Source of the DNA: a virus
Taxonomy: Duplodnaviria; Heunggongvirae; Uroviricota; Caudoviricetes
Direction: 5' to 3' (one strand)
Length of the DNA: 32,000 nucleotides
Virus record (IMG/VR): IMGVR_UViG_3300046542_000616
Below, piece by piece: positions 5,879 to 32,000 of this stretch. Below the pieces are notes generated by a model. That model made no database searches and was not told the DNA's origin. It saw nothing but the letters and a program-made list of their open reading frames with translations. The translations under genes and the position numbers were made by a program. Within the stretch, counting starts at the first letter, position 1. The number at the start of each line of letters is the position of its first letter.

Positions 5879-5906
5879 GCTTTGGAGCTTTGGAGCTTTG
5901 GAGCTT
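5879..5906. repeat. 3.5 tandem copies of the 8-bp unit GCTTTGGA within a CTTTGG-rich tract (about 5812-5960)
   Basis: Read directly: GCTTTGGA GCTTTGGA GCTTTGGA GCTT. The flanks contain GGCTTTGGCTTTTT, GGTTTGGCTTTTGCTTTG and GCTTTTGGCTT. Confidence 0.85.
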
Positions 5907-6134
5907 GGGGCTGTGACGCCACGGAGCATTGTGCTGCTTGCTGTAGCCTAAAAAGCCTTGGCTGGTGGCTAGTGAGGGATTATTTTGCAGGCAAAATCGA
6001 AAAGCTTTTATATCAAGGGTTTTATGATTAGTACCTTAAATGATTGTTATTTATATGAGTCCTATTAAGTGCTGGTCAATGGTCAAGAGCGAAAAGCTGA
6101 TTGGTGGGGTGTGGGGGTTTCGCGACAAAAACGG

Positions 6135-6180
6135 TTGATAGGCGGTTGAGAGGCGGAAGTTTGATGAGGTGGATAGAGGC
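6135..6180. repeat. tandem ~11-bp purine-rich direct repeats TTGA(T/G)AGGCGG
   Basis: TTGATAGGCGG (6135-6145), TTGAGAGGCGG (6146-6156), TTTGATGAGGTGG (6160-6172) and ATAGAGGC (6173-6180). Spacing is about one helical turn. Confidence 0.75.
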
Positions 6181-6421
6181 AAGGTACATAAGCTATCAAC
6201 AACTAGATCAATCCGGTAAAGCCAGATCAGCCAATCGATTAAAACACGAATGAATGTCGAACAACATGGTGTGAAACGAACCAATCGCATGATCAATACA
6301 TGAATGAATGCCGAACAACCGACTGCATTTATAATGAAGAAAAAATCAGTGGTTTTTGTGGTGCGGGCTCAGTCTCCCGTGCCAAAATCAGTTATATGTA
6401 GTTTTTTGCAGAGGGCTCGTA

Positions 6422-8947
<2,526 letters not shown>

Positions 8948-12073: not shown

Positions 12074-13393
12074 TTAGATGGTCAGCCGCAGGTTCTTTTC
12101 AATCTGTTCGGCGAGGGATTTAGGCACCTCGTTGTTCTTGGCCAGCTTGCGCCAGGTCGACACGTGCTCGATGGTTTCATCAATGATTGCGTCGATCTTC
12201 TGTTTGGAGAAAATTTTGCTCTGGTTCATGAAGGTGTAGAAGTCAGCACGCTCAAAGTTCTCACGCTTGCCGTTGATGCTCATCCAGTGGCTGTTCACCC
12301 ACTTGCTACCAGGCTTGTAGCTGTAGGCCAAGTCGTAAGCCGGCGCGAGACGCCATTGGTGGTCATCGCCCATCAGGAAGGCAAAGTTCTTTGAGTGGTC
12401 ATCATGGTTTCGGGCCACGACGTTGAACACCATGCGCTTGAAGATCTGTTCAGCTTCCTTGATCGAGAGCTTAAGCTGTCTAGCGAGGCCCAGCAGCTCG
12501 GCGTACGAGTAAGAGCCTGGCTGCTTGTAGTCGACGTGCGCCATGCCGTTGAGGGTTTGCACATGAATCTTGTCATTACCCAAGCGATCAAAACGCTGGG
12601 TGATGAAGTGACGACGGTTGCCTTCGTTAAGCAGGCGGCAGGGCATCATGTCGAGACCGCATTTTTTTGCCATCAAAAAGTAAGCGTATTCCATGGCGCC
12701 GTAGCCCATGGGGTCACCAAAGGTTTCCTTGGTCGTGTTGTGCTCGCTGACCCCGTCGAACTTCATCAGATAGTGCGTGAAGCCTTTGGGCACCTTGGCC
12801 TGGCCCGAGCGCACTTGGGTGAAGTCGTCGTTGAAGGCCAGTACGGCCTTTGGCCGGGCACCCCCGGCGCTCATGCCCACCGTCAGCAAGGCCATCATGC
12901 CTTCGCGATCTGCATGACCGTTGCCGGCCAGCTCCACATTAAAATTTGCGCGATCATCCAGGATCTCCTGGGCGATGCTGACCAGCGATCTGATTTCAAT
13001 CGGCTGCGAAGCATTGAGGCTTCTGACTTGCGTGGCCGGGATGTACTCCAATGCGCCCATACCGCGCTTTCCGGTGTACTGCAGGCGCTGCAAGGGCGTG
13101 ATATCGCCAGGCAAACGGCCCTGGCTGGCCACCCAGGCGTTTAACACCGCATTACCGAAATCATCGGGCAGGGAATCGGCAATCAAGCCAGGAAGGCCCT
13201 TGAAGGTCGCTGTATCGATTTCAGGAAAGGTGTAAATCCGCTTGGACAGCGGCATTTTGATTGGCGAGAGCTCGATTCCAGTCTTGATGAACGCAGGGGT
13301 GTACTCAAAGGCCCCGAGGCCGGTGTCGGTATCAAAACTCACCGCACCCACGTCATGGCCGGCATAAGCGACCTTTACGACTTCCATTACCAT
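12074..13393 (-). CDS. hipA: HipA-family serine/threonine kinase toxin (type II TA)
   Basis: 439 aa. It shows GGARPKA (the P-loop-like motif of HipA), RNHDDHSKNFAF (catalytic D.H.KN) and LAPAYDL. It overlaps the upstream HTH gene by 7 nt. Confidence 0.92.
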   Translation of the reverse strand: MVMEVVKVAYAGHDVGAVSFDTDTGLGAFEYTPAFIKTGIELSPIKMPLSKRIYTFPEIDTATFKGLPGLIADSLPDDFGNAVLNAWVASQGRLPGDITPLQRLQYTGKRGMGALEYIPATQVRSLNASQPIEIRSLVSIAQEILDDRANFNVELAGNGHADREGMMALLTVGMSAGGARPKAVLAFNDDFTQVRSGQAKVPKGFTHYLMKFDGVSEHNTTKETFGDPMGYGAMEYAYFLMAKKCGLDMMPCRLLNEGNRRHFITQRFDRLGNDKIHVQTLNGMAHVDYKQPGSYSYAELLGLARQLKLSIKEAEQIFKRMVFNVVARNHDDHSKNFAFLMGDDHQWRLAPAYDLAYSYKPGSKWVNSHWMSINGKRENFERADFYTFMNQSKIFSKQKIDAIIDETIEHVSTWRKLAKNNEVPKSLAEQIEKNLRLTI

Positions 13394-13740
13394 GTGGGTT
13401 CATCCTTCTCGGGTTTAGCAGGGGCTGATCGGGTGGCCCTCTGGCGTTCTCTACTCTGCAATTTGAGCAACTGCAGGGGTGAAAGCTCCTGTTTGGGCAA
13501 GAACGTATTGAGTTGCTCCACCAAGTCAAGAGCCGTCAGGATGGCCGCCAGGGTATTGAGCTGGACACGACCTTTCTCCGCCGCAACCACGACCTTGCGA
13601 GTCACGCCAATACGTTCCGCCACCTCAGCTTGGGTGAGGCCGGCATTGAGCCTGGCCTGCTGAAGGCGTTGACCGATCTCTTCGGCGATGGCGTCTGGCG
13701 TTAAATCTTTGAACACGTTAATGACCCCTTTATGGGTCAC
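13387..13740 (-). CDS. hipB: HipB-like XRE-family HTH antitoxin/repressor
   Basis: The HTH segment is LTQAEVAERIGVTRKVVVAAEKG. There is no in-frame ATG: the start is GTG at 13740, or possibly GTG at 13716. It is translationally coupled to hipA, and palindromic operators lie upstream. Confidence 0.85.
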   Translation of the reverse strand: MTHKGVINVFKDLTPDAIAEEIGQRLQQARLNAGLTQAEVAERIGVTRKVVVAAEKGRVQLNTLAAILTALDLVEQLNTFLPKQELSPLQLLKLQSRERQRATRSAPAKPEKDEPTW

Positions 13741-17251: not shown

Positions 17252-18367
17252 TTAAAGCAGGCTGGCCTGATCAGGCACATCCTCTTGCGTGGCGGAATGG
17301 TCTTCCTGATCATAGTGGGCCACCGGATCCGCCTCGATATAGGTTCCCTTGAGCAGCTCAGACTTGATTTTAAGGGCTGCCGCACCTTTAAGCCCTGTCA
17401 CCATCCAGCGATGATCGCGATTGCGCACTATGGCCCATCCCGGCTCGATGTAGGTCTTGCTCTCATACTCCTGCAGCCGCTTGTTGAAATCAGACTTGAA
17501 CCTGCGCTCGACCGAATCGTAAGTCGACTTGCTGCCTGAAAGGCTGTGGTAGCTCTCCAGGAGCAGGTTAAACACTCCGTCCCGGTGCGAGGCAATGAAG
17601 GGCATCAATTTCTTGCCGTAGGAGTCCAGCGAATCCCATATCTCGAAGGGCACCAGAGTGGTGTTCACTCCATCAAACAGCAGAGCCATCATGTCGTCGA
17701 GCTCCACCATTAGCCGGCGCGACTGGCCCTGGGTCGCATTGCGATTGATAAAGCTCAGCGAGATCTCAAAGGGCTCCTTGTTGTTATAGCAATCCATGAT
17801 CATCGGCAGGTATTCGCTGTAGCGGTTGGTCACGCTCTGCTTGAGGAAGTTGCCATCGGGCAGCAACTCAAGGTCTTTGCGCGTGAGCACGTTGTACAGG
17901 CGGGCCAGCATGGACTTGCTCGCGATCTTGACGCTGCCGGCCTCCAGGTCTTCGAGCATGGTGCGGATGCGCGTGCGGTTGGGCCCCGAGTCCTTGATGT
18001 CCAGCCAGCCCAGCGCTTCGGTCATTAGGAAGGGCACTGGCTTGGTCAGCGAGCGACCTCGAGCCTTCACCAGGATGCGGGTAAACAGCGTCTCGTGGTC
18101 AACGGTCAGCTGCGGGCCCTTGTACTTGACGGTGCCGCCGAGGGAGAAGATGTCAGTCCATTCGTCATAGCGGCCCTTGGACTTGATCGCCGCAAAGAGC
18201 GCGCTGCGGACAATGGGATTGGCCTGCTCGTGAAACTCTTCGTTGGTCAGGGGGAGAACACCCTGGGCCGAGGCCAGGTCGAAGCCTTTGAGAAGCTTGG
18301 TGCGTCGATCACCAATCGTTTGAGTCAACTCTGTCGGATTCAAGATCTTGGTTTCTTGTACCGACAT
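17252..18367 (-). CDS. trfA: TrfA-family plasmid replication initiator
   Basis: - 371 aa with an AGGAG RBS.
- PIVRSALFAA...VKYKGPQLTVDHETLFTRIL...FLMTEALGWL parallels RK2 TrfA (from memory: DIARSALFTT...ITYTGVELRADDDELVWQQVL...FYELCQDLGW).
- ...ALLFDG...KLMPFIASHRD parallels VVLFAG...RMFDYFSSHRE.
- An iteron array lies adjacent. Confidence 0.85.
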   Translation of the reverse strand: MSVQETKILNPTELTQTIGDRRTKLLKGFDLASAQGVLPLTNEEFHEQANPIVRSALFAAIKSKGRYDEWTDIFSLGGTVKYKGPQLTVDHETLFTRILVKARGRSLTKPVPFLMTEALGWLDIKDSGPNRTRIRTMLEDLEAGSVKIASKSMLARLYNVLTRKDLELLPDGNFLKQSVTNRYSEYLPMIMDCYNNKEPFEISLSFINRNATQGQSRRLMVELDDMMALLFDGVNTTLVPFEIWDSLDSYGKKLMPFIASHRDGVFNLLLESYHSLSGSKSTYDSVERRFKSDFNKRLQEYESKTYIEPGWAIVRNRDHRWMVTGLKGAAALKIKSELLKGTYIEADPVAHYDQEDHSATQEDVPDQASLL

Positions 18368-18490: not shown

Positions 18491-18552
18491 ATGCGATGTT
18501 CGCTGAACGAATTCCGATGTTTCCTGAGCGGGTTCCGATAACTGCTGAGCAC
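18491..18552 (-). repeat. three reverse-orientation iteron-like repeats between the rep start and the direct iteron array
   Basis: Reverse complements read CGTTCAGCGAACATCGCAT (18491-18509), CGCTCAGGAAACATCGGAAT (18511-18530) and GTGCTCAGCAGTTATCGGAACC (18533-18552). These match GC(T/A)CAGCAAACATCGG. Confidence 0.8.
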
Positions 18553-18661
18553 CCAGGCACGCAGCAGGCCACAGGGAGGGAGACATAAGGAGAAGATCGT
18601 TCATTCGGCCTTTAGGCCGCCTACGGTTTTTCTTCGTATCGCTACAGGCCACGTAATACGT

Positions 18662-19612
18662 GGCGCTCATGGAATATCGGGACAGATTACGGGTGCCGTT
18701 CATCGCCGCCTCGCAGGCGCACAGAAAACATCGGCATCTCAAGGCCTGGGCCAGTCGTCAGAGATCCGTGGCACCCATCCATGAAAGCCTTTAAAACCGG
18801 GGCGCTCAGCAGATATCGGGACATCTATGCGACACCGGCGTCACGGGGTAAATGTGGACAGATACCCGACTTGGGCTGGAAAAGAGGCGCTAATAGGCGA
18901 ACAGCCCTACAAGCAAATGACAGTACAGGCTGAAGGCCACGGAATACGGGGCGCTCAGAGAATATCGGGACACTTATGTGACACATTGAATGGCGGTCAA
19001 ATGAGACGGATCGAGGAAGCACGATGGCTTGGTGGGGCCTTCCACCTGCAGGTGGACAGGCCACTGAGGGCCAAATGTGGACAGATACCGGCACTTTTCA
19101 GCCCAGGCGCACAGCAAACATCGGGATTTACCTGGAAGAAACGAAGGTGAGCAGTCTCCACGACCAGTTATTGAGGGCACCGGCACCTATCGGCTGACTC
19201 GACCAGGTCTTTAATCTGGACAGATTCCGGGTGTCCGGAGGGCCAAAGGCGTCTTTTTGGCCTGTGAGGGGCTTGATCCTGGCTGATAGCAGTCCGATGG
19301 ACGATGTGGTACATGGCCGGAGCCCTTATAAACCGTGGCGCTCAGCTAATATCGGGACAGATTTAGGCCATGACAGAGGGATGCAGGCTAGGGAGGTGAT
19401 TTACATGCTCGTCGGCCTGCCGTCCTGGTGAAAGGTCGCCAAATATGGACAGATTCCATGCCATGACCTGGCTTAAGGGCCAGATAAACTCAGGCGCACA
19501 GCAAATATCGTTCGATTTGAGGCCAAACGAATCCTTCGATCAGGATCCTGGCCGAGGCGCTGTCCATGCAAATGTGGACAGATACCAGACATGCTCAGCA
19601 ACCATCGGCCTT
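18662..19612 (+). repeat. direct iteron array of oriV (two related repeat classes sharing a GGACAGAT core)
   Basis: - Class B, GGCGC(T/A)CAG...A(T/C)ATCGG(GACA...): 18662-18690, 18716-18740, 18801-18829, 18950-18978, 19106-19131, 19337-19366, 19493-19518, 19591-19612.
- Class A, AAATGTGGACAGATACC: exact copies at 18850-18866, 19073-19089 and 19570-19586; variants at 19211-19228 and 19441-19457. Confidence 0.9.
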
Positions 19613-19729
19613 CGCTCATGAAACATCGTGTTTTTGCTGGGCAGAGGCCGGATCGAGAAGAAAAGCCTTATTAATCAGTGCAAAAAGCTGTTTTAGCAGG
19701 CGAGGGGAGGGTGGAAAAAATGACGGATT

Positions 19730-19836
19730 GATCATTATTTAACCAAAATATGGTGGCATTTAAAATTATTGAGAAGAAACAATCGGTTAAGTCACTTATA
19801 CCAATCCATCCACAGTGTATGCACAGCATATCCACA
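19730..19836. promoter_or_regulatory. AT-rich segment and DnaA-box-like sites of oriV
   Basis: - AT-rich tract around 19730-19790: ATCATTATTTAACCAAAATATGGTGGCATTTAAAATTATT.
- CCATCCACA at 19806-19814 (7/9 to TTATCCACA).
- ATATCCACA at 19828-19836 (8/9).
- A further ATATCCACG at 19972-19980. Confidence 0.7.
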
Positions 19837-19866
19837 GCTTTTATACAGTTTTTTCCACTGTTTTTT

Positions 19867-19923
19867 GATGTTTCTTGTGCGGTGACCGATGTTTGCTGAG
19901 CGGTGACGATGACTCCTGAGCAG
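19867..19923 (-). repeat. three reverse-orientation iteron-like repeats distal to the DnaA boxes
   Basis: Plus strand reads GATGTTTCTTGTGCGG (19867-19882), CCGATGTTTGCTGAGCGG (19886-19903, reverse complement CCGCTCAGCAAACATCGG) and GACGATGACTCCTGAGCAG (19906-19923). One more direct copy, GCGCTCAGCAAACATCGGCGGG, lies at 20193-20214. Confidence 0.75.
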
Positions 19924-20062
19924 ACTACGTTATCTGGTGTGCATCTGGCGATGTCTGCCGTGCAAATTTTGATATCCACGGAATCTGGTTCGATGCCTGC
20001 TGTGCAATGTATAACTTTCTAGCCAGGGCTAGCGCGACCTGCGGCCAATTTGGCGATCCTCC

Positions 20063-20162
20063 TAACCCCAAGGTAACCCCGTATCTCTAACCCGCCATCA
20101 CCAGGCTCTTGATCCCGTAGATAATAAAGCAAAGCTTTAACCCTTTTTTTGATGCTTAACCC
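20063..20162. repeat. five dispersed copies of TAACCC within 100 bp
   Basis: TAACCC at 20063-20068, 20074-20079 and 20088-20093; TTAACCC at 20137-20143 and 20156-20162, the last two each followed by a T-run. Confidence 0.6.
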
Positions 20163-20366
20163 TTTTGTCGCGCATCACGCACGCGAGGCAACGCGCTCAG
20201 CAAACATCGGCGGGTGGGAAGCCGGCAAAGCCTTAATTTTGAAGGCAAACCAACGGTTTTAAATTCTCTGCCAGGTCGAATTTGGTTTTAACCTGTGGCA
20301 CAATAAGGCACATATTGACAGTTTCCAGTCTTTCAACTGGACGTTTCATTCCCAAGGATTTGCACG

Positions 20367-22131: not shown

Positions 22132-22923
22132 CTAAGGGGAGGGCCCGTCGTTGATTTCGCACCTTGGTGCGGCAGGAACGGTCACCATCCCCTTGGCGTC
22201 GACCTGTAGCAACGTGACGACCTTGGCTGGATCCAGCGCGTCGTAGTAAAACTCATCACCATTGCTGGCCTTGTACACACGGGAAGCCAGCACCAGGGCG
22301 GTGGTGACGTGTTGCGGTGCAGCTTCGTATATCGCGGTGGTGACGGCGTGATCGAGTGTTAGTCGGAGCATGCGCTCAGTTGCATTACGCGCCTGATTGC
22401 CTTCCTCGTAATCCTTCAGTACCCGACGAGCCGTACTCTTGAGGCTTCGAGCATCGGCCTTGTAGGCATAGTCCATGGGGAATAGGTGATTCACCTCGGC
22501 GCTCATGGCCCTTATCAGTGAATAGCCCAATGCCGATGACGATGCCTTAACGCATTCGCCACGGAAACTCTCGCGGCGCTGTTGATTGATAGCAGGATTG
22601 AGCAGGTGCCCGAACTTCTCTTGCAAGTGGTCTTCGTAAAACCTCGCATTAAGAAGCGTGCCTTTGGCTACAAAAATCTCACCGCTTTCATCTGGATGGC
22701 CAGTGATGATGTCGGCTTCGTCGTAGCTGTAGTCGAGAACCACGTCCTTATCGTCGGTGCCTTCGATGTAGTACTGCAGGAAATCCAGGTCTGTGCCCAG
22801 GTAGAAACCGCCACGCCCGGTGTTCACCGAACCCAGGGTCAAGTCCACCGGCCAGCGCATCTGGAGCGTATGAGCCTGGAGGTTCTGCAGGTTGTAGGAA
22901 ACGATCCTGTGGCCGACTGGCAT
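22132..22923 (-). CDS. hypothetical protein, last gene of the large-paralog operon; lacks the LEDALGL tail
   Basis: 263 aa with a GAGG RBS. It starts 20 nt after the stop of the paralog at 22944-24044. Confidence 0.7.
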   Translation of the reverse strand: MPVGHRIVSYNLQNLQAHTLQMRWPVDLTLGSVNTGRGGFYLGTDLDFLQYYIEGTDDKDVVLDYSYDEADIITGHPDESGEIFVAKGTLLNARFYEDHLQEKFGHLLNPAINQQRRESFRGECVKASSSALGYSLIRAMSAEVNHLFPMDYAYKADARSLKSTARRVLKDYEEGNQARNATERMLRLTLDHAVTTAIYEAAPQHVTTALVLASRVYKASNGDEFYYDALDPAKVVTLLQVDAKGMVTVPAAPRCEINDGPSP

Positions 22924-22943: not shown

Positions 22944-24044
22944 TTAAAGGCCCAACGCGTCTTCGAGCATGTATGCCTTGCTCCATCGCAGGCCAAGCGC
23001 CGTCTCAACAGCGAACACCGTTTTGACGAAGGTGTTTTTATTAATGGGCGTCGTGTTTTTAAGCATCTCATCGATCTCGTTTCGATTGGCGCCCAGCTTT
23101 ATTTTTTCCGCGCAGTCATTCTCAGCACCAAGCTCGTCAAAAACCCACTTGAGCTTGATCCGCTCAGGCGGCTTCTGAGCTATCGTCTTGTCTGCGTCGA
23201 TGCCTTTAACCTCGGCTTTTGCGACAACCAGGCCAGACTGAACAATTTCGCAGTGCCAGAAGTCTGCCTTGTAAAATTCTGATTGGGTTGTGTGAGCGGT
23301 TGCTTTGGCAATCGCCTGAGACAGCGTAGGGGCAGCGGCAATAAGGAATCGAAATCCTTTTGTTAGGTTAGATGAAAATTCGATCCGATATTGGCCGGCA
23401 AAACAATCATCGCGTAGCCAAGTCTTTTGAGCCTCGCTGAAAAGCTCGGTTTTTCCGGCAATTACCCTGGACTCGTATGTTTCCTGAAGGCATTCAGGCA
23501 GTTCGATGTCCTTTCCGGTCAAGTCGATCAGCCAGCCTATGTCGAAACCTTCATAAGCGTGGAAGTATTGGTAGATGGCTTCTTGCTGATCAGGCGATGA
23601 TTCGTTGTACAGAATTGCAATATCGACCCACCTGACGTTTGCAGTCATTTTTGCTTGGAACATAAAGTAGCTGCATAGCTGATCCAAGCTGGATGGCTGA
23701 AATTTTCCATGAAGTTCTTCGAAGCGAGCGTCTTCTTTGGCGGCTATTTCTGCAAGCTCAATTTTTGTCACAAATGGAGCGTTATGGATCCTTGGTTTTA
23801 AGATTGAGAACAGTCGCTCAAAGGTTAGTTCTGACATCGATTTGAGTGGCGCAATTATCTCAGGATGAATGCTGCCAGGAAGGTCGAAGTGGTTCTCGCT
23901 CAGACGATCCAATGCATCGGCGTCGGGCACGACCTCTTCGCCAAACAAGGTGGTGAACCTTGCAGGGTTTCGATAAAACGCACTGTTGATGAATACATGG
24001 CTGTATGCGCTTGGAATTGGCAACATCTCTGGTTTATTTGACAT
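22944..24044 (-). CDS. large LEDALGL-tail family paralog 1
   Basis: The start was moved to ATG 24044 (MSNKPEMLPIPSAYSHVFIN...) by alignment with the paralog N-termini. It shares IAPL..MS..TF, LYN.S.DQQEAIYQYF, WLRDD, AAPTLSQAIAKATAH and KLKW, and ends ...WSKAYMLEDALGL-TAA. Confidence 0.8.
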   Translation of the reverse strand: MSNKPEMLPIPSAYSHVFINSAFYRNPARFTTLFGEEVVPDADALDRLSENHFDLPGSIHPEIIAPLKSMSELTFERLFSILKPRIHNAPFVTKIELAEIAAKEDARFEELHGKFQPSSLDQLCSYFMFQAKMTANVRWVDIAILYNESSPDQQEAIYQYFHAYEGFDIGWLIDLTGKDIELPECLQETYESRVIAGKTELFSEAQKTWLRDDCFAGQYRIEFSSNLTKGFRFLIAAAPTLSQAIAKATAHTTQSEFYKADFWHCEIVQSGLVVAKAEVKGIDADKTIAQKPPERIKLKWVFDELGAENDCAEKIKLGANRNEIDEMLKNTTPINKNTFVKTVFAVETALGLRWSKAYMLEDALGL

Positions 24045-24125
24045 AGTCACTACTTGGATTTGGATTACTTGCATTATCCGACAAGAACATCGATCCGGAC
24101 AAGAAAACCAGTGCATGGTTAAGGC

Positions 24126-25145
24126 TTAAAGGCCCAATTCGTCTTCAAGCCGGCTCACCTTCGACCACTGCATACCAAGTGCTTCTTCGGTGGCATACAG
24201 CGTCTTGAGGAACTCAGTCTTGGTGATGCCGCCCTGGTCGTTCTTTGGGCGAAGGTCAGCATGTCGCCAGGTAATTCTCGGGTCTTTGTCCTTCACGTGA
24301 GGGTGATTGCCGGAGGTGAACTTGACCTCACCCGTTGCAACAAACTGCCCTAGCTGGGCGAGACTGATGTGGGCAAGCGTGCCTTTGAAGTTGATGGCTC
24401 CCTGGATGGCACGAGCAATTGCAAGCTCCAGTGTCGGTGCTGTGCTGATCAACAAGTCGCGATGATAAGAGTCGACTCCATACACCTCGAATTGGTTAAT
24501 AACGAAATCCTCTCTGAGCCACCGGTCTTTGGCCACGTCGAAAGCCTGCTTCTCCCCATTTTCGATTCTGGTTTGCAAGGGCTTGTCGAAGGCGGGCGGG
24601 AGGTCGATAGCCGGCGCCTGGGTCGCTAGAAGGATGGCAAGGTCTCTGTTCTTTACGATACTAAAGTATTGGTACAAAGCCTCCTGCTGGTCGTCTGTGG
24701 ACGCGTTATAGAGATCTGCCAGTCGAGCCCATTCGACATAGCGGTTTACTCGGGCGGAGAGGAGCAGATAGCTCATGACCTGGTCTGTCGAAGCAGGATG
24801 GGATGCCTCAGTAATGTTGCCGTATTCCCTGCGCGCCATATCGGCGAGGTTGTCACGGCTGGTGATGATTTCATTTTGAAACTTAGGCTTGAGCACCGAG
24901 CAAAGCGCCTCAAACGTCTCGCCAGTCATGGCGGCCAGCGGAGCCATGATCGTGGTATCGATTTTGTGAGGGCCGTTTTGGTTTGAGTCATCGAAATCGA
25001 TGTCAGCCACCACATGCGGCCCGACCCTTTCTGAGTCCTTATGCTCATCTGGATGATGGCAGTCGAGGTTTTCGTAGAGCAGTCGAATGTACGGATAGGC
25101 TTCCACGCTGGGTGGCGTGATGTGGTTTGGGCTGGTCGATGACAT
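24126..25145 (-). CDS. large LEDALGL-tail family paralog 2
   Basis: 339 aa with an AGGAG RBS. It shows PPSVEAYPYIR, MAPLAAMTGETF, LYNASTDDQQEALYQYF, WLRED and TAPTLELAIARA, and ends ...QWSKVSRLEDELGL-TAA. Confidence 0.85.
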   Translation of the reverse strand: MSSTSPNHITPPSVEAYPYIRLLYENLDCHHPDEHKDSERVGPHVVADIDFDDSNQNGPHKIDTTIMAPLAAMTGETFEALCSVLKPKFQNEIITSRDNLADMARREYGNITEASHPASTDQVMSYLLLSARVNRYVEWARLADLYNASTDDQQEALYQYFSIVKNRDLAILLATQAPAIDLPPAFDKPLQTRIENGEKQAFDVAKDRWLREDFVINQFEVYGVDSYHRDLLISTAPTLELAIARAIQGAINFKGTLAHISLAQLGQFVATGEVKFTSGNHPHVKDKDPRITWRHADLRPKNDQGGITKTEFLKTLYATEEALGMQWSKVSRLEDELGL

Positions 25146-25220
25146 GGTGAAGCTCCTGGTGGTGCTTTGTTAAGTATCCGTGTTGCGCATACCGCTGGGC
25201 AACTTGCTACGGGGGATAGG

Positions 25221-26315
25221 TCACAGGCCCAGCGCATCTTCCAGGAGTTGCACCTTGCTCCACTGAACGCCCATGGCTTTCTCAACGGTGAAGAGTGTCT
25301 TGATGAAGTCGTCTTTTTTGAGCGGCGTGGTGAATCTCGACAGGGTCTCGATCTGCTGTTCTGTAAGGTTTTGTGTCCTGATTTTCTCAGCAATTTCCTC
25401 CTCACAGCCAAGTTGATCCACAAGCCACAGGGGTTTCACCGGACGTCTGGCAAAATCGATTAAATGGCTGTCATCACCTATGGACTGAAACCTGGCGCCG
25501 GCAATCCTTAGTCCGCCTTGCGTAATGTCGCAGAAACAGAAGTCAAGCGAGTATTCGGTTTCTTTGAGATGGGCAGTGGCTTTGGCCAATGCCTCGCATA
25601 ACGTCGGAGCAGTAGCGACAAGCGTTTTAAATGCGTCATTCACGATGTCTACGCGGTACTGTTGGATATAGGCATCATCGCGCAACCACCGCTGCAGCAC
25701 CTGGCTGTAGTGGTAGTCATTGCCGTTATGCACCCTTGTTTCCAATGGCTCGACGAGTGATTCTGGCAGGTCGAATTCCTTGGCCTTGTGCTCAAGTAAC
25801 CGCGCAAGCTCGAGCCCATGGTAATGATTGAAGTATTGCCAGATGGCTTGCTGCTGGCCTTTCGCAGATCGATTGTAAAAATCGACAAAATTGCCCCAAT
25901 GGATATTTTTCTTTGCGAGCGTTGCTTTCGCAATGGCGAACGACTCAAGCTGCGTTGGCGAATACGTTTCAAGGTGTGGATCAGACTTCAGGAGTTCTAC
26001 CAGGTCATTTTGCGAGAAGCGCTGTAGGCTCTCTCGATTCCTGATTTCATAGTCGTCGTATTTAAAGCTTAGGATTGAGGCCAGGGTAGCGAACGTTTCA
26101 TCGCTCATCGCTTCTAACGGGGCAATGCGGGTCAAGTCAATGTTGCCTGGCGAACCAAATCGGTTGTGCATGATATTGGAATGCAGGGTGCGATCTCCAG
26201 CCGCATCAAGGCCATCAGCAGTGGTAAAGCCAGTAGGATCACCACGGTAAATGATGTTGATGAAGGGATAATCCCTCAAGGCTGGCTTGATCAGCTCGGT
26301 TGGGCCTGCGATCAC
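25221..26315 (-). CDS. large LEDALGL-tail family paralog 3
   Basis: GTG start at 26315 with an AAGGAG RBS 7 nt upstream. It shows YPFINIIY, IAPLEAMSDETF, QQQAIWQYF, WLRDD and TAPTLCEALAKATAH, and ends ...QWSKVQLLEDALGL-TGA. Confidence 0.85.
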   Translation of the reverse strand: MIAGPTELIKPALRDYPFINIIYRGDPTGFTTADGLDAAGDRTLHSNIMHNRFGSPGNIDLTRIAPLEAMSDETFATLASILSFKYDDYEIRNRESLQRFSQNDLVELLKSDPHLETYSPTQLESFAIAKATLAKKNIHWGNFVDFYNRSAKGQQQAIWQYFNHYHGLELARLLEHKAKEFDLPESLVEPLETRVHNGNDYHYSQVLQRWLRDDAYIQQYRVDIVNDAFKTLVATAPTLCEALAKATAHLKETEYSLDFCFCDITQGGLRIAGARFQSIGDDSHLIDFARRPVKPLWLVDQLGCEEEIAEKIRTQNLTEQQIETLSRFTTPLKKDDFIKTLFTVEKAMGVQWSKVQLLEDALGL

Positions 26316-26358
26316 GAAAATGCTCCTTGTGAATTCTTATTGTGGGTATGAGCGTCCA

Positions 26359-27447
26359 TTAAATCCCCAGCGCCTCTTCCATGTGCCTCACCTTGTTCCA
26401 TTGCACGCCCAAGGCCTTCTCAACCGCGAACAGGGTCTTGATAAATTCGTTTTTTTTGAGCGGCGTGGTGTACTTAGTCACTGCCCCGATCTCCGCACCA
26501 GGCTCATACTGAACCCACAGTGGCTTGACTGGGCGAGATGCCCAGTCCAAAAGGCGGTCGTCGCTGGAATTGATTGACTCAAGCGTTGCCCAAGCGACTA
26601 TCCGACCGCCTTGGAGAATATCGCAGTAGTCGGTATCAATCGGATACTCATTGTCCTTCAGGTACGCTGTCGCTTTGGCAAGTATTTGAGCCAGGGTCGG
26701 CGCGGTCGCAATCAGTGTTCGGGTCACCGGGTTTACGATGTCAAAGCGGTACTGCTGCTGATACGCATCATCGCGCAACCACTTCTGAAGAACCTGGCTA
26801 TAGCGGTATTCATTACCTTTATGCGATCTCGACTCAAACGGCTCAATTAGACAATCGGGGATGGTGAGATCCTTGGCTTTGTGCGCGAGCAGAGATTCAA
26901 GCTCAAGACCGTGATATGTCTCGAAGTATTGGCGGATGGCTTGCTGCTGGTCATCGGCAGACTGGTTGTAGAGGCTAACCAGGTTGCCCCAGTGGACGCT
27001 TTTGGAAAACGTGGCCCTGGCCAAGAAGTAGGCCTCAAACTGGGCTCGAATGTAGGGCTCACGACCTTCGTCATTTGGCAGGTGGTAACTGCTGTTTTTG
27101 TATGTGAAATGCTCAAGGCTGCTGCGTTCACGTATGTCCGCGTCGTCACATTTGATGCCGAGGATTGAGGCCAGGGAAGCGAACGTTTCGTCGGTCATGG
27201 CACAATAAGGCGCCAATAGGGTATCAGTGATGTCCGCCGCAGAGCGGAATTGCGAGCTGTTGATCTTAGTTCGTCGCTCAGGATCACCTGCCATGCAGAC
27301 GTCCTCGTAGATGTCATCCTTTCCATCTTCTCCGGCCAGCACACAGTGAACCTTATCCGTAATGAACCGAGTGCGATCCCCTTGAAAGACGATGTTGATG
27401 AAGGGGTAGTTCTTCAAGTCAGGTGCGGTTAACTGGTGGGTGGTCAC
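26359..27447 (-). CDS. large LEDALGL-tail family paralog 4 (variant tail MEEALGI)
   Basis: The start was moved to GTG 27447 (VTTHQLTAPDLKNYPFINIVF...), which has an AAGGA RBS. This removes the overlap with paralog 5. It ends ...QWNKVRHMEEALGI-TAA. Confidence 0.8.
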   Translation of the reverse strand: MTTHQLTAPDLKNYPFINIVFQGDRTRFITDKVHCVLAGEDGKDDIYEDVCMAGDPERRTKINSSQFRSAADITDTLLAPYCAMTDETFASLASILGIKCDDADIRERSSLEHFTYKNSSYHLPNDEGREPYIRAQFEAYFLARATFSKSVHWGNLVSLYNQSADDQQQAIRQYFETYHGLELESLLAHKAKDLTIPDCLIEPFESRSHKGNEYRYSQVLQKWLRDDAYQQQYRFDIVNPVTRTLIATAPTLAQILAKATAYLKDNEYPIDTDYCDILQGGRIVAWATLESINSSDDRLLDWASRPVKPLWVQYEPGAEIGAVTKYTTPLKKNEFIKTLFAVEKALGVQWNKVRHMEEALGI

Positions 27448-27488
27448 GTCTGTGTTCCTTGTCTGTTCTTGTCGAAGGGGGCCAGGCA

Positions 27489-28640
27489 TCAAAGCCCAAG
27501 CGCATCTTCCAGCTTGGACACCCGGTTCCACTGAAGGCCCATGGTCTTCTCTACGAAGAACACTGCTTTGGTAAACTCCTTTTCCGAGACCTTTACCGTC
27601 TTGCTAAGTCGGAGATCGATTTCACTGACCTGCTGTTTAAGCTGACCGATGATCAGTGAATCCTTGGTGTTCTCGATTTCCTGCAGGAGCTTTTCGCCCT
27701 TAGCCCGCAAATTGCCTAGGTCTTCACCCAACTGCTCAAAATTCCACTTAAGCTTGTAGGGGGACATGATCATCTCGAACAAATCGGCATCATCAGGAAA
27801 GTCCTTCGCCATCTTGAACTCACCTTGAGCCAGGTATTTGCCTTGCTGACGCAGGACGATCAGGTCAGACACCATGGAGCCCGTGGCTTTTTCGACATAC
27901 GCGGTAGCCTTGGCAATGGCTTGGTTGAGCGTCGGAGCGGAGCCCAGCAGGAAGATCTCTTGTGTGCTGCGATGATAGGCGTCAACCCTGTATTGCTTGT
28001 GCAGGATGTCTTCACGAACCCATTGTTGCTGTAGATCACTGAATAAAAATTTCTCGCCATCAACGTCCTTGGATTGAAACGTCTCCTGGAGTTTCTCTGG
28101 AATGGTAATGGATACCGGTGGGGTGCTCATCAGCACACTCAGGTCACGGTTCATGCAGCGGAGGAAGTATTGATGAATCGCCTCCTGCTGGCCAGGCTCG
28201 GCGCCGTTGTAGAGCTCGGCAAGATGGCCCCAGTGAATGTCCTGGGTGGTCAGCGCTTTGGACAGGATGTATGTCTGAAGCTGATCGACGGTATACGACT
28301 CCTCATCATGGAATCGATTCAGGTTGCTGGCCGTAATTGTCTCAAGGGTCTGCCGGCTCACGATGTCTGATCCGAAGGCGCGAGGCTGCAGGATTTTCAT
28401 CAGGCGGGCGAAGGTTTCGTCTGACATCGCCTGGACGGCGGCCACGGCGGGATCGCTCACGTAGGAGGGTTCCTGAAAAAAGCTGACCTCGAATTCTTCG
28501 TCAGCCTTTGAATTAGGGGACTGATCTTGCTGTATCACGTTGTGCTTGAACGATACGTTGTGATGGAAATGCACGGCATTGATGAACGGATAGGCGTCCA
28601 GGCTAGGTACGGTAAGGCTGTCCGGTCTGCTCGTGGTCAT
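27489..28640 (-). CDS. large LEDALGL-tail family paralog 5
   Basis: The start was moved to ATG 28640 (MTTSRPDSLTVPSLDAYPFINAV...), which has an AGGA RBS. It ends ...QWNRVSKLEDALGL-TGA. It is the first gene of the minus-strand operon and is divergent from the small-family operon. Confidence 0.8.
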   Translation of the reverse strand: MTTSRPDSLTVPSLDAYPFINAVHFHHNVSFKHNVIQQDQSPNSKADEEFEVSFFQEPSYVSDPAVAAVQAMSDETFARLMKILQPRAFGSDIVSRQTLETITASNLNRFHDEESYTVDQLQTYILSKALTTQDIHWGHLAELYNGAEPGQQEAIHQYFLRCMNRDLSVLMSTPPVSITIPEKLQETFQSKDVDGEKFLFSDLQQQWVREDILHKQYRVDAYHRSTQEIFLLGSAPTLNQAIAKATAYVEKATGSMVSDLIVLRQQGKYLAQGEFKMAKDFPDDADLFEMIMSPYKLKWNFEQLGEDLGNLRAKGEKLLQEIENTKDSLIIGQLKQQVSEIDLRLSKTVKVSEKEFTKAVFFVEKTMGLQWNRVSKLEDALGL

Positions 28641-28765
28641 GTTTGCGATCCTGATCTGGTTTTCCTCATTATCGGCGCTGAGACTGCGCTCGAACAAGCA
28701 ATGATGCAGGGGTTTGATGCGACGGCTGCTCATAAGGGACAATACGTTATGGCCTGGAGTGACTC

Positions 28766-29203
28766 ATGGAATTGCAACAGAAGAAATACGGTTATAACTT
28801 GATTTTTTGCGAGCAGCGCAAAGACCAGACATACCATTGGAAAGATATTACGAATTTTGCGGCAGCCGACACCGCTGAGGAAGCTGTAGAAAATTTGTTG
28901 AAGCTCATGCGTGGATCGACGGAGCTAAAAGACATGTTTAAAACGAATGCAACTGTCTTATTAACCAAGTTTGAGTTAATCGGAAGCGGCAAAAAACTAC
29001 TTAGTTTCGAAACACGCAGGATGGGAACAGTCGTTGATAATTTGGCAAATATACTTATAAGCGGAAGTATGGTTGGAGATCCTTGGAAAAACATCGTCTT
29101 TGACTATGTGGATCGGGAACTTCTAAGTGCCTTGGTGAAGACATTCCCAGATCAAAAGCAGTTCTTTAAAGGCAAGGTTTTAGAAGGCTCCCTAGGTCTG
29201 TGA
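28766..29203 (+). CDS. small LEDALGL-tail family paralog S1 (tail LEGSLGL)
   Basis: 145 aa with a GGAG RBS. It shows FAAADTAEEAVENL and ...LLSALVKTFPDQKQFFKGKVLEGSLGL-TGA. Confidence 0.8.
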   Translation: MELQQKKYGYNLIFCEQRKDQTYHWKDITNFAAADTAEEAVENLLKLMRGSTELKDMFKTNATVLLTKFELIGSGKKLLSFETRRMGTVVDNLANILISGSMVGDPWKNIVFDYVDRELLSALVKTFPDQKQFFKGKVLEGSLGL

Positions 29204-29236
29204 TTGGGCGTGGAGATAAAAGTTAGGAGCATAGCA

Positions 29237-29662
29237 GTGGATTATGACAAAAAGAAATTCGGGTTCACAATTTGGTTCCACGACCGGAACAAGAATCTTA
29301 CGATCAACTGGTATGATTTTCCGGAATTTGCCTGTGCCGACACGGCGGGCGAGGCTATGGCTAATTTGGTCGATATTCTCGATGGATCTATTCCGTTGTG
29401 GCAGTTGCCGGACAAAGGAAGCAAGGCAGAATTGACCAGGATTGAGTTGCACGGTGATGGCAAGAGGCTGTTCAGGCTCAATGGTCTGAAAGAGGTCAAG
29501 AACCAGGCGCAACCTTGGCTTAAGACCATCGTTACTGTGCAGTGGAAATATACGGTATTCGATGACGTAAATCGCGAGCTCCTGGATGCTTTGGTGCAGA
29601 CGTTTCCGGAGCAGCAGCGGATTTTCAAGGGTAAATTTTTGGAAGATGCTCTGGGCCTCTGA
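29237..29662 (+). CDS. small LEDALGL-tail family paralog S2
   Basis: The start was moved to GTG 29237 (VDYDKKKFGFTIWF...), which has an AGGAG RBS 7 nt upstream, by alignment with S1 and S3. It ends ...FPEQQRIFKGKFLEDALGL-TGA. Confidence 0.8.
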   Translation: MDYDKKKFGFTIWFHDRNKNLTINWYDFPEFACADTAGEAMANLVDILDGSIPLWQLPDKGSKAELTRIELHGDGKRLFRLNGLKEVKNQAQPWLKTIVTVQWKYTVFDDVNRELLDALVQTFPEQQRIFKGKFLEDALGL

Positions 29663-29692
29663 CCTGGTGGATTTCTTCTGAGGAATAAAGCG

Positions 29693-30136
29693 ATGGAAAA
29701 CGCGAAAAACAATTTTGGTTATATATTGGCCTTTAATGAGCGACTGAGTGGCGTAGGAAACCTGATAAAACATCACTACGTCTATGATTTCGCCGCCGCA
29801 CAAACGGCTGAGGAAGCTGTCGACAACCTGGCGAAGGTGCTTGAAGGGTCGATTCCGTTTAAGCAGGATCTTGATAAGGGCCTCAGAGACAAAACCAAAC
29901 TTGTCAGCCTTGAGTTAATGGGCGATGGCAAGAAGCTGTTCAAATTGCATTCCATTGAAGGAACGGAGAGCTTGTTCGGTTTGCCCTGGTTCAAGAAGCC
30001 GAGCTTGAGTGTTCACTGGGGTTGGATGGAATTTGAGCGCGTGGATCGGAATCTGCTGGATGCCTTGGTGAAGACGTTTCCGGAGCAGAAGCAGATCTTT
30101 AAGGGGAAATTTCTGGAAGACGCCCTGGGCCTCTGA
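29693..30136 (+). CDS. small LEDALGL-tail family paralog S3
   Basis: 147 aa with a GAGGA RBS. It shows FAAAQTAEEAVDNL and ends ...FPEQKQIFKGKFLEDALGL-TGA. Confidence 0.85.
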   Translation: MENAKNNFGYILAFNERLSGVGNLIKHHYVYDFAAAQTAEEAVDNLAKVLEGSIPFKQDLDKGLRDKTKLVSLELMGDGKKLFKLHSIEGTESLFGLPWFKKPSLSVHWGWMEFERVDRNLLDALVKTFPEQKQIFKGKFLEDALGL

Positions 30137-30175
30137 TTCAATCTAAGTGCCGAAGCATTAAGGAATGCCAGAACG

Positions 30176-30562
30176 ATGAACCAAAGCCGATTTTCTTGCC
30201 GGCTGTATTTTAGCCGAGTGAGCATCACAGGCCGGCGAGACGTCTCCCTGATCCCTAATTACGTAGTCGGTACTTCCCTGGACGAAATTGTCAGCCAAGT
30301 GGCCAAGCTGTTTGATGGTTCCCGCCCGTTAGCAGGTGCAGGAAGCTCGGATGAGGCCCTATTCAGAGTGGTGATCGAAGAGATGGAGGATGAGTTGCTG
30401 ACTCTTTCGGTGTTCGACGATGGCGAGCACTGCCTGATCAACTGGGAGGATTCGACATTCCACGGAGTGGGCAAGGAGATGGTCAATGCACTGACAGCAG
30501 TCTTTCCAGATCATGTGGATCAATTCAAGCGCTTTGCACTGGAAGGGGCGCTCGGTCTCTGA
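30176..30562 (+). CDS. small LEDALGL-tail family paralog S4 (divergent; tail LEGALGL)
   Basis: 128 aa with an AAGGA RBS. It ends ...ALTAVFPDHVDQFKRFALEGALGL-TGA. The central W..(D/E)..F position is conserved with S1-S3. Confidence 0.75.
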   Translation: MNQSRFSCRLYFSRVSITGRRDVSLIPNYVVGTSLDEIVSQVAKLFDGSRPLAGAGSSDEALFRVVIEEMEDELLTLSVFDDGEHCLINWEDSTFHGVGKEMVNALTAVFPDHVDQFKRFALEGALGL

Positions 30563-30588
30563 AAGGGCCGGGAAGGCCTTGTAGTCGC

Positions 30589-31710
30589 CTACAGCCCCAA
30601 AGCATCCTCAAGGTCATGCACCTTAGACCATTGCAGGCCTAAAGCCTTCTCGACGCGATACACGGCCTCTCGGAAGTCTTTCAGGGGCACTGGGATCGGT
30701 TTGTCCAAAAGCGCCTCCAGCCTGGCGACGTTAGCCATGATTTTATCCTCTTCGCTCCTGAACGTATTGAGCGAGCGCATGGCGTCCTTCTTGATGCCTT
30801 GAACGTAGGAACGATCCGCACCCAATTGATCAAGGTTCCACTTGAGCTTGGTGATAATGCCTTTGCCGGCAATCACTTCAGCATGGGCCACGGGTTCGGC
30901 GAACTGAAGGATATCCAGGCGCCATTTGCCAGCCGCATATTCATCATCCTTGAGGCACAGCGAAGCCTTGGCGATGGCCTGGTCAAGCGTCGGCGCACCC
31001 CCAATAAGGTAGCGAGCATTGAGTGACGTGAGCACGATGTCGATGCGGTATTGCTGGTGAAACCGATCCTCTCGAAGCCATTTCTGCATCACCTCACTGA
31101 AGTGGTACGCATCACCGTTTTTGGCCTTGGTCTGGAATTCCTCCTGAACACATCCTGGCAAGGTGATGGCGGGGCCAGTGGTGCCCAACAGGTCTGGAAG
31201 ATCAATGTCGTGATGATTTAAGAAGTATTTCAGGATGGATTCTTGCTGATCGGGGTCTGACTCATTGTATAGGGACGCCACCTTTGCCCACTGCACGCTT
31301 TTGGACATGTCAGCATGGAACATCAGGTAAGTCTGAAGCTGCCCGGCTGTATAGGGCCCGCAATCATCTTCCTCGTTCACGACATAACTCGGCGTTTTTC
31401 GGAAGGCCAGTGCCTCAAGGTCAGCCTTTGTCCTGATTTCAGTGTCGTAGATTGATGGCTTGAGCAGGGTGAAAAGGCTATTGAAAGTGAAGTCGCTCAT
31501 CGCGAGGAGCGGCGCAATGTGATGATTGCGAACACTGGCGGGAAAATCGAAGTATTCACTGGCAACTTTATCGTACGAATCGACGTCAGGCGCCCTGGCC
31601 TCACCGGTAGCGTCGGTGAACCCAGCAAAGTCCCTGTGGAACATCACGTTGATGAACGGATAGTCGCTGAGGCTGGGCGGATTCAGGCGGGCAGGGCGCT
31701 TGGCGGTCAT
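30589..31710 (-). CDS. large LEDALGL-tail family paralog 6
   Basis: 373 aa with an AAGGA RBS. It shows PPSLSDYPFINVMF, IAPLLAMSDFTF, DQQESILKYF, WLREDRFHQQYR and GAPTLDQAIAKA, and ends ...QWSKVHDLEDALGL-TAG. Confidence 0.85.
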   Translation of the reverse strand: MTAKRPARLNPPSLSDYPFINVMFHRDFAGFTDATGEARAPDVDSYDKVASEYFDFPASVRNHHIAPLLAMSDFTFNSLFTLLKPSIYDTEIRTKADLEALAFRKTPSYVVNEEDDCGPYTAGQLQTYLMFHADMSKSVQWAKVASLYNESDPDQQESILKYFLNHHDIDLPDLLGTTGPAITLPGCVQEEFQTKAKNGDAYHFSEVMQKWLREDRFHQQYRIDIVLTSLNARYLIGGAPTLDQAIAKASLCLKDDEYAAGKWRLDILQFAEPVAHAEVIAGKGIITKLKWNLDQLGADRSYVQGIKKDAMRSLNTFRSEEDKIMANVARLEALLDKPIPVPLKDFREAVYRVEKALGLQWSKVHDLEDALGL

Positions 31711-31837
31711 TGAGTGTGTCCTTGTACTGGCATGTGTTCATTATCCAGACTGAGCCAGTGAGCGCACAAGAAAGCCAGCGAGCGCTTTTCCTTTTGAGGC
31801 CAAACAACCACGGCCTTCAAGTCGTTGTTTTTAAACG

Positions 31838-31876
31838 ATTATAGTCAATTATAGACCGATTATAGAGCGACTATAG
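31838..31876 (-). promoter_or_regulatory. four tandem copies of ATTATAG (gene-sense strand: CTATAAT/CTATAGT) at 10-11-bp spacing
   Basis: Plus-strand ATTATAG at 31838-31844, 31848-31854 and 31859-31865, and ACTATAG at 31870-31876. The array sits upstream of paralog 6 and overlaps the stop codon of paralog 7. On the sense strand each copy contains TATAAT (or TATAGT). Confidence 0.6.
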
Positions 31877-32000
31877 ACCAAGGGCATCTTCAAGGAGCAG
31901 GCCTTTGTGCCATTTCACACCAATCGCCTCCTCGGCAATAGCGATGGATTTCTCAAGGCGATCCTTGGTAAAGCCGAGTTTGAGATGATCGGTATCCCAG
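31871..32000 (-). CDS. large LEDALGL-tail family paralog 7 (C-terminal fragment; continues beyond the window)
   Basis: Hand translation of the minus strand gives ...IAIAEEAIGVKWHKGLLLEDALGL-TAG, with the stop at 31871-31873. The frame is open to nt 32000. Confidence 0.75.
   Translation of the reverse strand, partial: WDTDHLKLGFTKDRLEKSIAIAEEAIGVKWHKGLLLEDALGL

Follow-up and report, generated by a model that had tools for sequence, protein, structure and literature searches.

What do the proteins do that fill one end of a 32,000-nt stretch of DNA filed as a Caudoviricetes virus (IMG/VR record IMGVR_UViG_3300046542_000616; the whole stretch is referred to here as the window)? Positions 22944-32000 are taken up by six complete and one truncated large paralog (339-383 amino acids, aa) and four small paralogs (128-147 aa). 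The original prediction, made from this DNA alone, had described two paralog families with no recognisable function and likened them to conflict, host-manipulation or anti-defence gene sets. All eleven genes are found in the table of open reading frames (ORFs) where that prediction had placed them. What it had missed is a C-terminal tail common to both families, the continuation of the array beyond the end of the window, and a structural likeness between the small and the large proteins; the feature that sets the system apart, a common C-terminal tag spread plasmid-wide in relatives, had thus gone unseen. The array is laid out as follows.

22944-24044, minus strand: large paralog 1, 366 aa, ending MLEDALGL; identical to the representative protein P0042
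24126-25145, minus strand: large paralog 2, 339 aa, ending RLEDELGL; length and termini match the representative P0006
25221-26315, minus strand: large paralog 3, 364 aa, ending LLEDALGL
26359-27447, minus strand: large paralog 4, 362 aa, ending HMEEALGI
27489-28640, minus strand: large paralog 5, 383 aa, ending KLEDALGL
28641-28765: divergent intergenic region, 125 bp separating the minus-strand run from the small genes on the plus strand
28766-29203, plus strand: small paralog 1, 145 aa, ending VLEGSLGL
29237-29662, plus strand: small paralog 2, 141 aa from the GTG at 29237 (the ORF opens at 29204), ending FLEDALGL
29693-30136, plus strand: small paralog 3, 147 aa, ending FLEDALGL; 100% identical to the representative P0022
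30176-30562, plus strand: small paralog 4, 128 aa, the most diverged small paralog, ending ALEGALGL
30589-31710, minus strand: large paralog 6, 373 aa, ending DLEDALGL; converges on the small genes across a 26-bp gap
31871-32000, minus strand: 3′ end of large paralog 7, ending LLEDALGL; 351 aa in contig L024

Aligned over their whole length, the complete large paralogs are 33-42% identical to the first of them, and the alignment of the four small ones gives 28-50% identity. Every conserved block listed in the original prediction is present in the large-paralog consensus (PSLxxYPFIN, IAPLxAMSDETF, LYNxSxPDQQEAIxQYF, WLREDxxxQQYR, APTLxQAIAKATA, KLKW and ALGLQWSKVxxLEDALGL), and the proposed head-to-tail operon of five large genes is borne out by spacers of 81, 75, 43 and 41 nt and by AGGAG/AAGGA-type ribosome-binding sites in front of most genes. 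Small paralog 2 probably starts at the GTG at 29237, behind an AGGAG, rather than at 29204; its homolog P0020 is 141 aa long.

The full array is visible in contig L024 (from SRR26076635), whose 373-aa gene is identical in DNA to that of the window. It comprises 14 large and 4 small genes over ~21 kb. Seven further large paralogs (330-382 aa) come first, followed by a PapB-family regulator and a 165-aa gene; after these stand the paralogs of 351 and 373 aa, then the small genes, all four on the opposite strand, and finally another five large paralogs with a 263-aa gene. A 1.28-Mb contig (L001) carries 13 large and 4 small genes and a 1.13-Mb contig (L021) 13 and 6; a look-up of P0006 also led to contigs showing the window's gene order. 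To the question whether the family always occurs as arrays, the answer is that the arrangement is tandem in all contigs inspected that are long enough to include a neighbouring gene.

Every large and small paralog ends in a sequence of the form L-E-(D/G/E)-x-L-G-(L/I). Among 44 genes of full length at three loci, that of the window and those of two relatives, Leu at position -7 and Glu at -6 each occur in 42, Asp at -5 in 35, Leu at -3 and Gly at -2 in all 44, and Leu at -1 in 39. The tail is encoded by all six Leu codons, all four Gly codons, both Glu and both Asp codons, and no DNA conservation is seen 3′ of the stop codon. This free codon variation, together with the unconserved DNA past the stop, argues for selection on the tail peptide and rules out the tail as a by-product of a DNA repeat such as a cassette boundary or a terminator. 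It is retained in 74 of 85 representatives of the large family and in 22 of 22 small-family matches, and in the AlphaFold2 models of both a large and a small protein it prolongs the terminal helix (residues 361-370 of 373 and 130-145 of 147) at a predicted local distance difference test score (pLDDT) of 75-84. As read from these sequences, the pattern is a hydrophobic residue at -7 and acidic residues at -6/-5 followed by x-L-G-L-COOH, at the extreme C-terminus of every member. The two families of the original prediction are therefore both real but not independent, as they have a tail and probably also a domain in common.

Is the tail a property of this array only? The complete 904-kb sequence of the Pseudomonas megaplasmid pBASL58 was assembled from 19 pieces and gives 888 non-overlapping ORFs of at least 100 aa. 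The products of 128 of these (14%) end in [DE][LMI]G[LMI], where 0.24 would be expected from composition, and 78 end exactly in DLGL. Without their last 12 residues, the 128 proteins are sorted by blastp into 97 clusters, of which 80 have a single member. In the logo of their last 14 residues, Leu occupies -7 in 124 of 128, and Glu or Asp account for 59% at -14 and 56% at -10. The tail proteins are acidic and 135-641 aa long, with a median of 400 aa compared to 224 aa for the other proteins, and a membrane-like segment is present in 4 of the 128 as opposed to 150 of the remaining 760. They keep to accessory regions: the first 100 kb has none, and no tail protein starts past 866 kb, the two stretches with replication, partition and secretion genes. 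Many stand in tandem arrays. One is annotated as a TerD-family protein and one as DUF6685, and in those annotation tables that could be compared with the tail list the others are hypothetical proteins.

The same ending is common in two further megaplasmids, as 20 of 50 proteins in a 50-kb sample of pMPPla107 and 14 of 196 proteins in 191 kb sampled from pPL1 end in DLGL. The idea that pPL1 uses a tail of its own (DDGLSL), implying a co-evolving receptor, was dropped because sampling gave DLGL as its main tail too. No tail was found among 88 proteins of pND6-2 (117 kb, with annotated Dot/Icm genes including IcmO), among 50 proteins sampled from pPniHBP1_1 (425 kb, typed MPF_I) or among 49 proteins in a 50-kb sample of a Vibrio megaplasmid with a related coupling protein. 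Coupling proteins of the IcmO type, with 46-47% identity to the one on pBASL58, are found on the Vibrio megaplasmids NZ_CP062152.1, NZ_CP097357.1, NZ_CP015514.1 and CP099927.1 (0.88-0.94 Mb), the sampled one among them. The occurrence of the tail on about a hundred otherwise unrelated proteins per plasmid in the relatives suggests that it behaves as a modular address or docking tag. Judged by sequence, then, the tag is real, selected, modular, carried by soluble proteins and, among the plasmids sampled, confined to the pMPPla107-type megaplasmid family, and the array in the window appears as one lineage-specific family within a larger tagged proteome characteristic of these megaplasmids. No mention of the tail was found in the literature searched.

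The array does lie beside a plasmid origin, as proposed: a TrfA-like Rep (17252-18367) matches Reps from Pseudomonas megaplasmids alone, at 48.6-51% identity (48.6% to TrfA of pBASL58), and is followed by a non-coding iteron field of ~1.9 kb (18495-20213) in which a ~24-nt iteron (GGCGCWCAG....ATCGG) occurs at least eight times alongside repeats of several other families. The window also encodes a SocA/Panacea protein, an AAA_5 ATPase with a DUF2201/VWA metallopeptidase-like protein as a pair, and HipA-HipB (1848-2519, 4500-8947 and 12074-13740, respectively). Synteny with pBASL58 is seen for several genes of the window (31-48% identity), and the AAA-VWA block corresponds to pBASL58 145-152 kb, just past the two ssb genes of that plasmid. 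Array-bearing contigs reach 1.11, 1.13 and 1.28 Mb. The replicon of the window is thus a megaplasmid of at least ~1.1 Mb and a distant relative, not a close member, of the Pseudomonas pMPPla107/pBASL58 family. It has in common with that family the TrfA-type Rep, the AAA-VWA synteny, the megabase size, HipBA, and tandem arrays of hypothetical genes with LGL tails, whereas the divergence is deep (30-50% amino-acid identity) and the acidic pair in the tail stands one position further from the end (LEDxLGL in the window, LxxDLGL in the pBASL58 type).

The distribution of the large family agrees with the restriction to mobile elements that the original prediction had put forward for checking. It has 85 representatives among 1.84 billion representative proteins, with profile E-values down to 1e-161, and a profile scan of 185,579 GTDB species genomes returned no relatives. 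A tblastn search against phages gave no match to the family, and megablast of the 9-kb region against plasmids gave none either. With the family profile, plasmid matches are limited to Pseudomonas silesiensis pPL1 (1.17 Mb), in which two adjacent ORFs score E 4e-64 and 8e-55, and to pBASL58, where the family is barely detectable (one ORF, E 2e-14). No family in Pfam, NCBIfam, PHROGs or PADLOC came above threshold for any array member, and a profile search of PDB sequences gave no match (best E 0.38), so that, as first claimed, no described family matches.

Structure prediction extends this result. The AlphaFold2 model of the large protein (the 373-aa gene at 30589-31710) has a pLDDT of 88.2 and a predicted template modelling score (pTM) of 0.85, and that of the small protein (the 147-aa gene at 29693-30136) a pLDDT of 80.1 and a pTM of 0.75. 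Foldseek, the check that had been suggested for one large and one small member, found no match for either (best E 0.81 for the large and 0.051 for the small protein against PDB, and 0.11 for the large protein against the viral structures of BFVD). The models therefore predict, with confidence, a new fold for each family. In the models the small protein consists of two strands, a helix, three strands and two terminal helices, the same order as in residues 221-373 of the large protein, and a profile-profile comparison of the small family with the C-terminal half of the large one gives a weak match (E 0.002-0.006, probability 4-13%). This is suggestive of the small protein being a free-standing C-terminal domain of the large one. 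Across 24 homologs no His, Cys or Ser is invariant, the invariant residues being Pro, Trp, Leu, Gln, Asn, Thr and Glu, which is more in line with a role in binding or as a scaffold than with catalysis. The array products are soluble, acidic α/β proteins that probably have no enzymatic activity.

The original prediction had also called the family diversified and proposed dN/dS between paralogs as a check. Between the window and L021, dN/dS (the ratio of nonsynonymous to synonymous divergence) of six large orthologs is 0.15-0.21 at a synonymous divergence (dS) of 1.3-2.8, and the four small orthologs have reached saturation of dS. The comparison of the window with L001 gives dN/dS values of 0.10-0.47, and in comparisons of paralog with paralog the synonymous sites are saturated. 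The ortholog dN/dS values and the profile E-values down to 1e-161 argue that the array genes are not chance ORFs. They are old and under purifying selection, and whole-gene dN/dS gave no sign of gene-wide positive selection. Most array genes are 95-99% identical between the window and L001. The pair 27489-28640 and 28766-29203, which flanks the divergent intergenic region, differs in its alleles from the corresponding stretch of L001 (12508-14223), with 63% and 59% amino-acid identity, respectively, and a dS of 1.6-2.2 (1.6 for 27489-28640, whose neighbouring genes are 98-99% identical), and gene 22944-24044 has no ortholog in L001. This mosaic pattern points to turnover by cassette replacement and by gene gain or loss. 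In place of continuing positive selection across whole genes, the data thus indicate diversity that has been kept for a long time under gene-wide purifying selection (dN/dS 0.10-0.47), with replacement of cassettes.

Which part, then, of the conflict or anti-defence reading can be kept? A tandem family that has expanded and diverged does lie beside a plasmid origin, but nothing found shows a conflict or anti-defence role. Nor does the locus have the make-up of toxin-antitoxin or effector-immunity pairs, as large genes outnumber small ones by 14 to 4, the small ones sit together on the opposite strand, and the two kinds of protein have the tail and a probable domain in common.

The question is what reads the tail. 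pBASL58 has a complete complement of Dot/Icm core genes, among them DotA/TraY, IcmT, DotD, DotG, DotH and DotI, and encodes an IcmO/DotL coupling protein with an adjoining DotM_C-domain protein (E 2e-33). All three tail-rich plasmids encode IcmO/DotL, the coupling protein of pMPPla107 being 79% and that of pPL1 64% identical to the one of pBASL58, and the complete 1.17-Mb circle of pPL1 provides a direct link, as it carries IcmO and two true members of the large family on one replicon. Among the effectors of Dot/Icm systems, the class recruited by DotM has Glu-rich C-termini; on the side of pBASL58, Glu or Asp occupies -10 and -14 in 56-59% of tails, which counts in favour of such a reader. 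Recruitment of one effector class by DotM has been described (PMC5802825), and substrates of type IVB secretion systems are recognised at their C-termini, the features in use being a hydrophobic residue near the end (about -3), acidic residues, an EExxE block and FxxxLxxxK (as listed in PMC9519443). The type IVB system of P. putida delivers a toxin into bacteria (PMC9519443), conjugative type IV systems move plasmid proteins into recipients (PMC8406263), and the authors of the pMPPla107 study left open whether its Dot/Icm-like system secretes effectors, reporting no known effectors and 776 of 1080 genes as hypothetical (PMC3136466).

The tail may be a modular recognition peptide for a megaplasmid-specific machine, most plausibly a Dot/Icm-like type IVB coupling complex (DotL-DotM), with the array as a diversified set of substrates; we regard this as a tentative reading, at somewhat less than an even chance. 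In such a model the tag would be bound in the cytoplasm by the DotL/IcmO and DotM coupling complex of the plasmid's Dot/Icm-like type IVB system, the tagged proteins would be translocated into a recipient or target cell on contact, the array would supply a diversified set of such substrates, and the small paralogs would serve as minimal substrates or else compete for binding to the same receptor. A broader statement, for which the chances are only a little short of even, is that pMPPla107-type megaplasmids use an unrecognised C-terminal address code (hydrophobic-x-x-[DE]-L-G-L-COOH) on about a hundred orphan proteins each, and that this code would be read by a dedicated machine, be it Dot/Icm-like with a family-specific adaptor or another.

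Several observations weigh against a type IVB readout. While Leu at -3 is present in 44 of 44 window-lineage genes, the acidic residues there lie at -5/-6 and not at -10 to -17, and the two families of the window lack acidic residues at the positions -10 and -14 at which pBASL58 tails have 56-59% Glu/Asp. Known Dot/Icm signals are a loose compositional bias, whereas the tail follows a rigid motif in which Gly at -2 never varies. No search of the array proteins matched a known effector. In sample 3300046522 the contigs Ga0495643_0000001 (1,136,430 bp, locus L017) and Ga0495643_0000002 (1,131,278 bp, locus L021), both with genes 30-50% identical to those of pBASL58, divide the two parts between them: the array sits on the 1.131-Mb contig _0000002, and the DotM-DotL pair on the 1.136-Mb contig _0000001, which carries ParM-DotM-DotL, LigA and RNase H. 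These contigs may represent two separate plasmids, variants from two strains or pieces of a single replicon. A linkage between array and type IVB genes in the replicon of the window was not found by a search with the pBASL58 coupling protein, by a look-up of the coupling protein P0183 or through cluster members; no member of the 90% clusters of the coupling proteins P0183, P0190 and P0140 lies on an array contig, and a metagenome scan for the linkage returned only unrelated contigs. Two other Pseudomonas plasmids typed MPF_I, including pND6-2 with its annotated Dot/Icm genes, showed no tails in the proteins sampled. A generic DotL/DotM readout would thus not suffice, and the model would call for a different machine or for an adaptor specific to the family. 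Finally, a conjugative plasmid that delivers more than 100 proteins would be without precedent.

Known secretion systems offer partial parallels. Like the Dot/Icm effectors of Legionella and Coxiella, the tagged proteins are many soluble orphans and paralog families with a C-terminal mark, on a genome with DotL, DotM and a Dot/Icm core; unlike them, they are carried by a plasmid of a free-living or plant-associated Pseudomonas-type host, have no effector homology and bear a rigid motif (L..[DE]LGL) in place of a compositional bias. The XVIPCD of Xanthomonas and Stenotrophomonas effectors is the recognition handle for the type IV coupling protein in a bacteria-killing type IVA system. As in our case, one C-terminal module is common to many unrelated proteins, but the XVIPCD is a folded domain of ~120 aa of another secretion class, on enzyme effectors with adjacent immunity genes, whereas here the module measures 7-14 residues and immunity genes were not seen. 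PsiB, SSB and ParB of the F plasmid and the Sog primase of IncI plasmids are cytoplasmic plasmid proteins that are exported by a conjugative type IV system and act early in the recipient (PMC8406263); these are a handful of proteins with known functions and no common short motif, in contrast to the tagged orphans described here, which number about a hundred on each plasmid and stand in tandem arrays.

Short C-terminal peptides can also serve other readers, and tags such as the SSB tip (DDDIPF), ssrA (ALAA), the end of Pol IV (QLVLGL) and peroxisomal SKL illustrate that a few C-terminal residues suffice for a dedicated pocket; these tags are, however, not spread over 14% of a replicon's proteins, and the tail has none of their Gln, Pro-Phe or Ala-Ala. 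We consider it unlikely that the tail is a degradation tag whose ALGL end is read by ClpXP or another C-terminus-specific protease, perhaps through a plasmid adaptor, such that short-lived proteins limit cost or time their activity after entry. Such a role would be in keeping with the likeness of ALGL-COOH to the ALAA-COOH of ssrA, with the position of the tail at the very end, as a reader of the free carboxylate would need, and with the SspB (PF04386, E 1e-10), SmpB and transfer-messenger RNA (tmRNA) that pBASL58 encodes, but the tail ends in L-G-L/M/I with an invariant Gly where ssrA has L-A-A, the last two Ala being its key ClpX contacts. The tmRNA tag of the plasmid itself ends in RLAA and not in LGL, the tail is absent from the other Pseudomonas plasmids sampled though host proteases are common to them, and there is no obvious reason to mark ~14% of a plasmid's proteins, in 97 clusters, for destruction. 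That the tail mimics the tmRNA tag is ruled out by the tag encoded on pBASL58, ANDNAFEGARLAA. The tmRNA, SmpB and SspB homolog of pBASL58 are encoded at 765169-765563, 764489-764953 and 486734-487135, respectively (L039, L033), and the plasmid also has 46 tRNAs. Docking to a hub, in the manner of an SSB tip or a clamp motif, would tether plasmid proteins to the replication and repair machinery or to a plasmid-specific scaffold, and it is less likely again. An acid-acid-x-hydrophobic-small-hydrophobic-COOH ending is found in the SSB tip and LGL-COOH in Pol IV, and pBASL58 has DnaE, DnaQ, DnaB, DnaG, two SSBs, RecQ, exonuclease I, topoisomerases and RNase H, several of which are known partners of the SSB tip. 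SSB tips end in Pro-Phe, though, and the Gln of the clamp motif is missing, as -6 is Glu in 42 of 44 window-lineage tails and mostly Glu, Gly, Ala or Ser in pBASL58 (Gln in at most 7 of 128); the pBASL58 annotation contains no dnaN, and nothing in the tail proteins suggests DNA metabolism.

A tail with no targeting role, which would simply be the end of a conserved terminal helix in one old, hugely expanded and diverged superfamily, is improbable given the spread of tail proteins over 135-641 aa and 97 blastp clusters. The prolonged terminal helix of both models, the conservation reaching back ~14 residues in pBASL58 and the many tail proteins in tandem arrays, as duplication predicts, can all be accommodated by this explanation, but the last four residues are the most conserved and the motif ends exactly at the stop codon, which argues for recognition of a free C-terminus and not for core packing, and the tails on a TerD-family and a DUF6685 protein argue for grafting onto unrelated domains. 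Very improbable, in our view, is a type I secretion signal or the cargo peptide of an encapsulin-like shell. Such readings build on the likeness of DLGL to the Asp-plus-hydrophobics end of secreted metalloproteases (DVIV in PrtG) and to the DLGI core of the Thermotoga encapsulin cargo peptide; the annotation of pBASL58 has an RND (resistance-nodulation-division) pump and an outer-membrane efflux subunit but no ABC (ATP-binding cassette) exporter with a membrane-fusion partner and no encapsulin or capsid-fold shell gene, no such genes lie near the array or in the flanks of the window, and RTX (repeats-in-toxin) or Gly-rich repeats are absent.

The surroundings of the array bear on how it may be expressed. 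Divergent promoters are presumed, from the gene geometry, to lie in the intergenic region 28641-28765, where no sigma-70 consensus stands out above chance; the scan for promoter and terminator consensus sequences likewise gave nothing above chance. On the minus strand at 31826-31870, in front of gene 30589-31710, three direct copies of CTATAAT are spaced by 11-12 nt (TCGCTCTATAATCGGTCTATAATTGACTATAATCG), and L001 retains this triplet with one change; it may be a promoter or operator of the downstream large paralog. Rfam and tRNA scans of the window gave no match. In L024 (16666-17490) the middle of the array holds the PapB-family transcription regulator (82 aa, E 1e-16) and the 165-aa orphan gene, which may regulate the array. 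About 14 small co-directional genes (59-141 aa) lie directly upstream of the array in L024 (4016-8828); in several the N-terminus looks like a signal peptide or a membrane segment, and Pfam matches only the first of them, with HTH_37. One more gene follows the array in the window:

22132-22923, minus strand: 263-aa gene, 20 nt downstream of the last array gene and co-directional with it, no LGL tail

This gene stands directly after the array in L001-L007 and in L021 and L022, though not in L023, and it is probably the last gene of the array's transcription unit. Its product is 38% identical to a pBASL58 protein without the tail. It ends in EINDGPSP (ELDDSPSP in L021), faintly like the DDG[LM]S[LP] ends of a few large-family members, among them P0089 and the two pPL1 homologs; that NDGPSP is a degenerate tail was set aside, the pBASL58 homolog being tail-less.

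For the biology of these megaplasmids, the tail makes testable a question raised in 2011 for pMPPla107 and its ~776 hypothetical genes, namely whether its system serves conjugation only or also effector secretion (PMC3136466). Found on 14% of pBASL58 proteins, on 40% of the pMPPla107 sample and on every array member, the tag provides a candidate substrate list and a 7-residue motif, and DotM, DotL and SspB can be named as candidate receptors. If the tag drives transfer, then conjugative megaplasmids would inject large, diversified protein arsenals, with a bearing on host range, fitness cost and anti-defence; if it acts otherwise, it would still represent a new plasmid-wide code for protein sorting or turnover. 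Should the address code hold true, no plasmid would be known with a larger repertoire of tagged or exported proteins, and the 18-gene array to which the window belongs would be one family within it.

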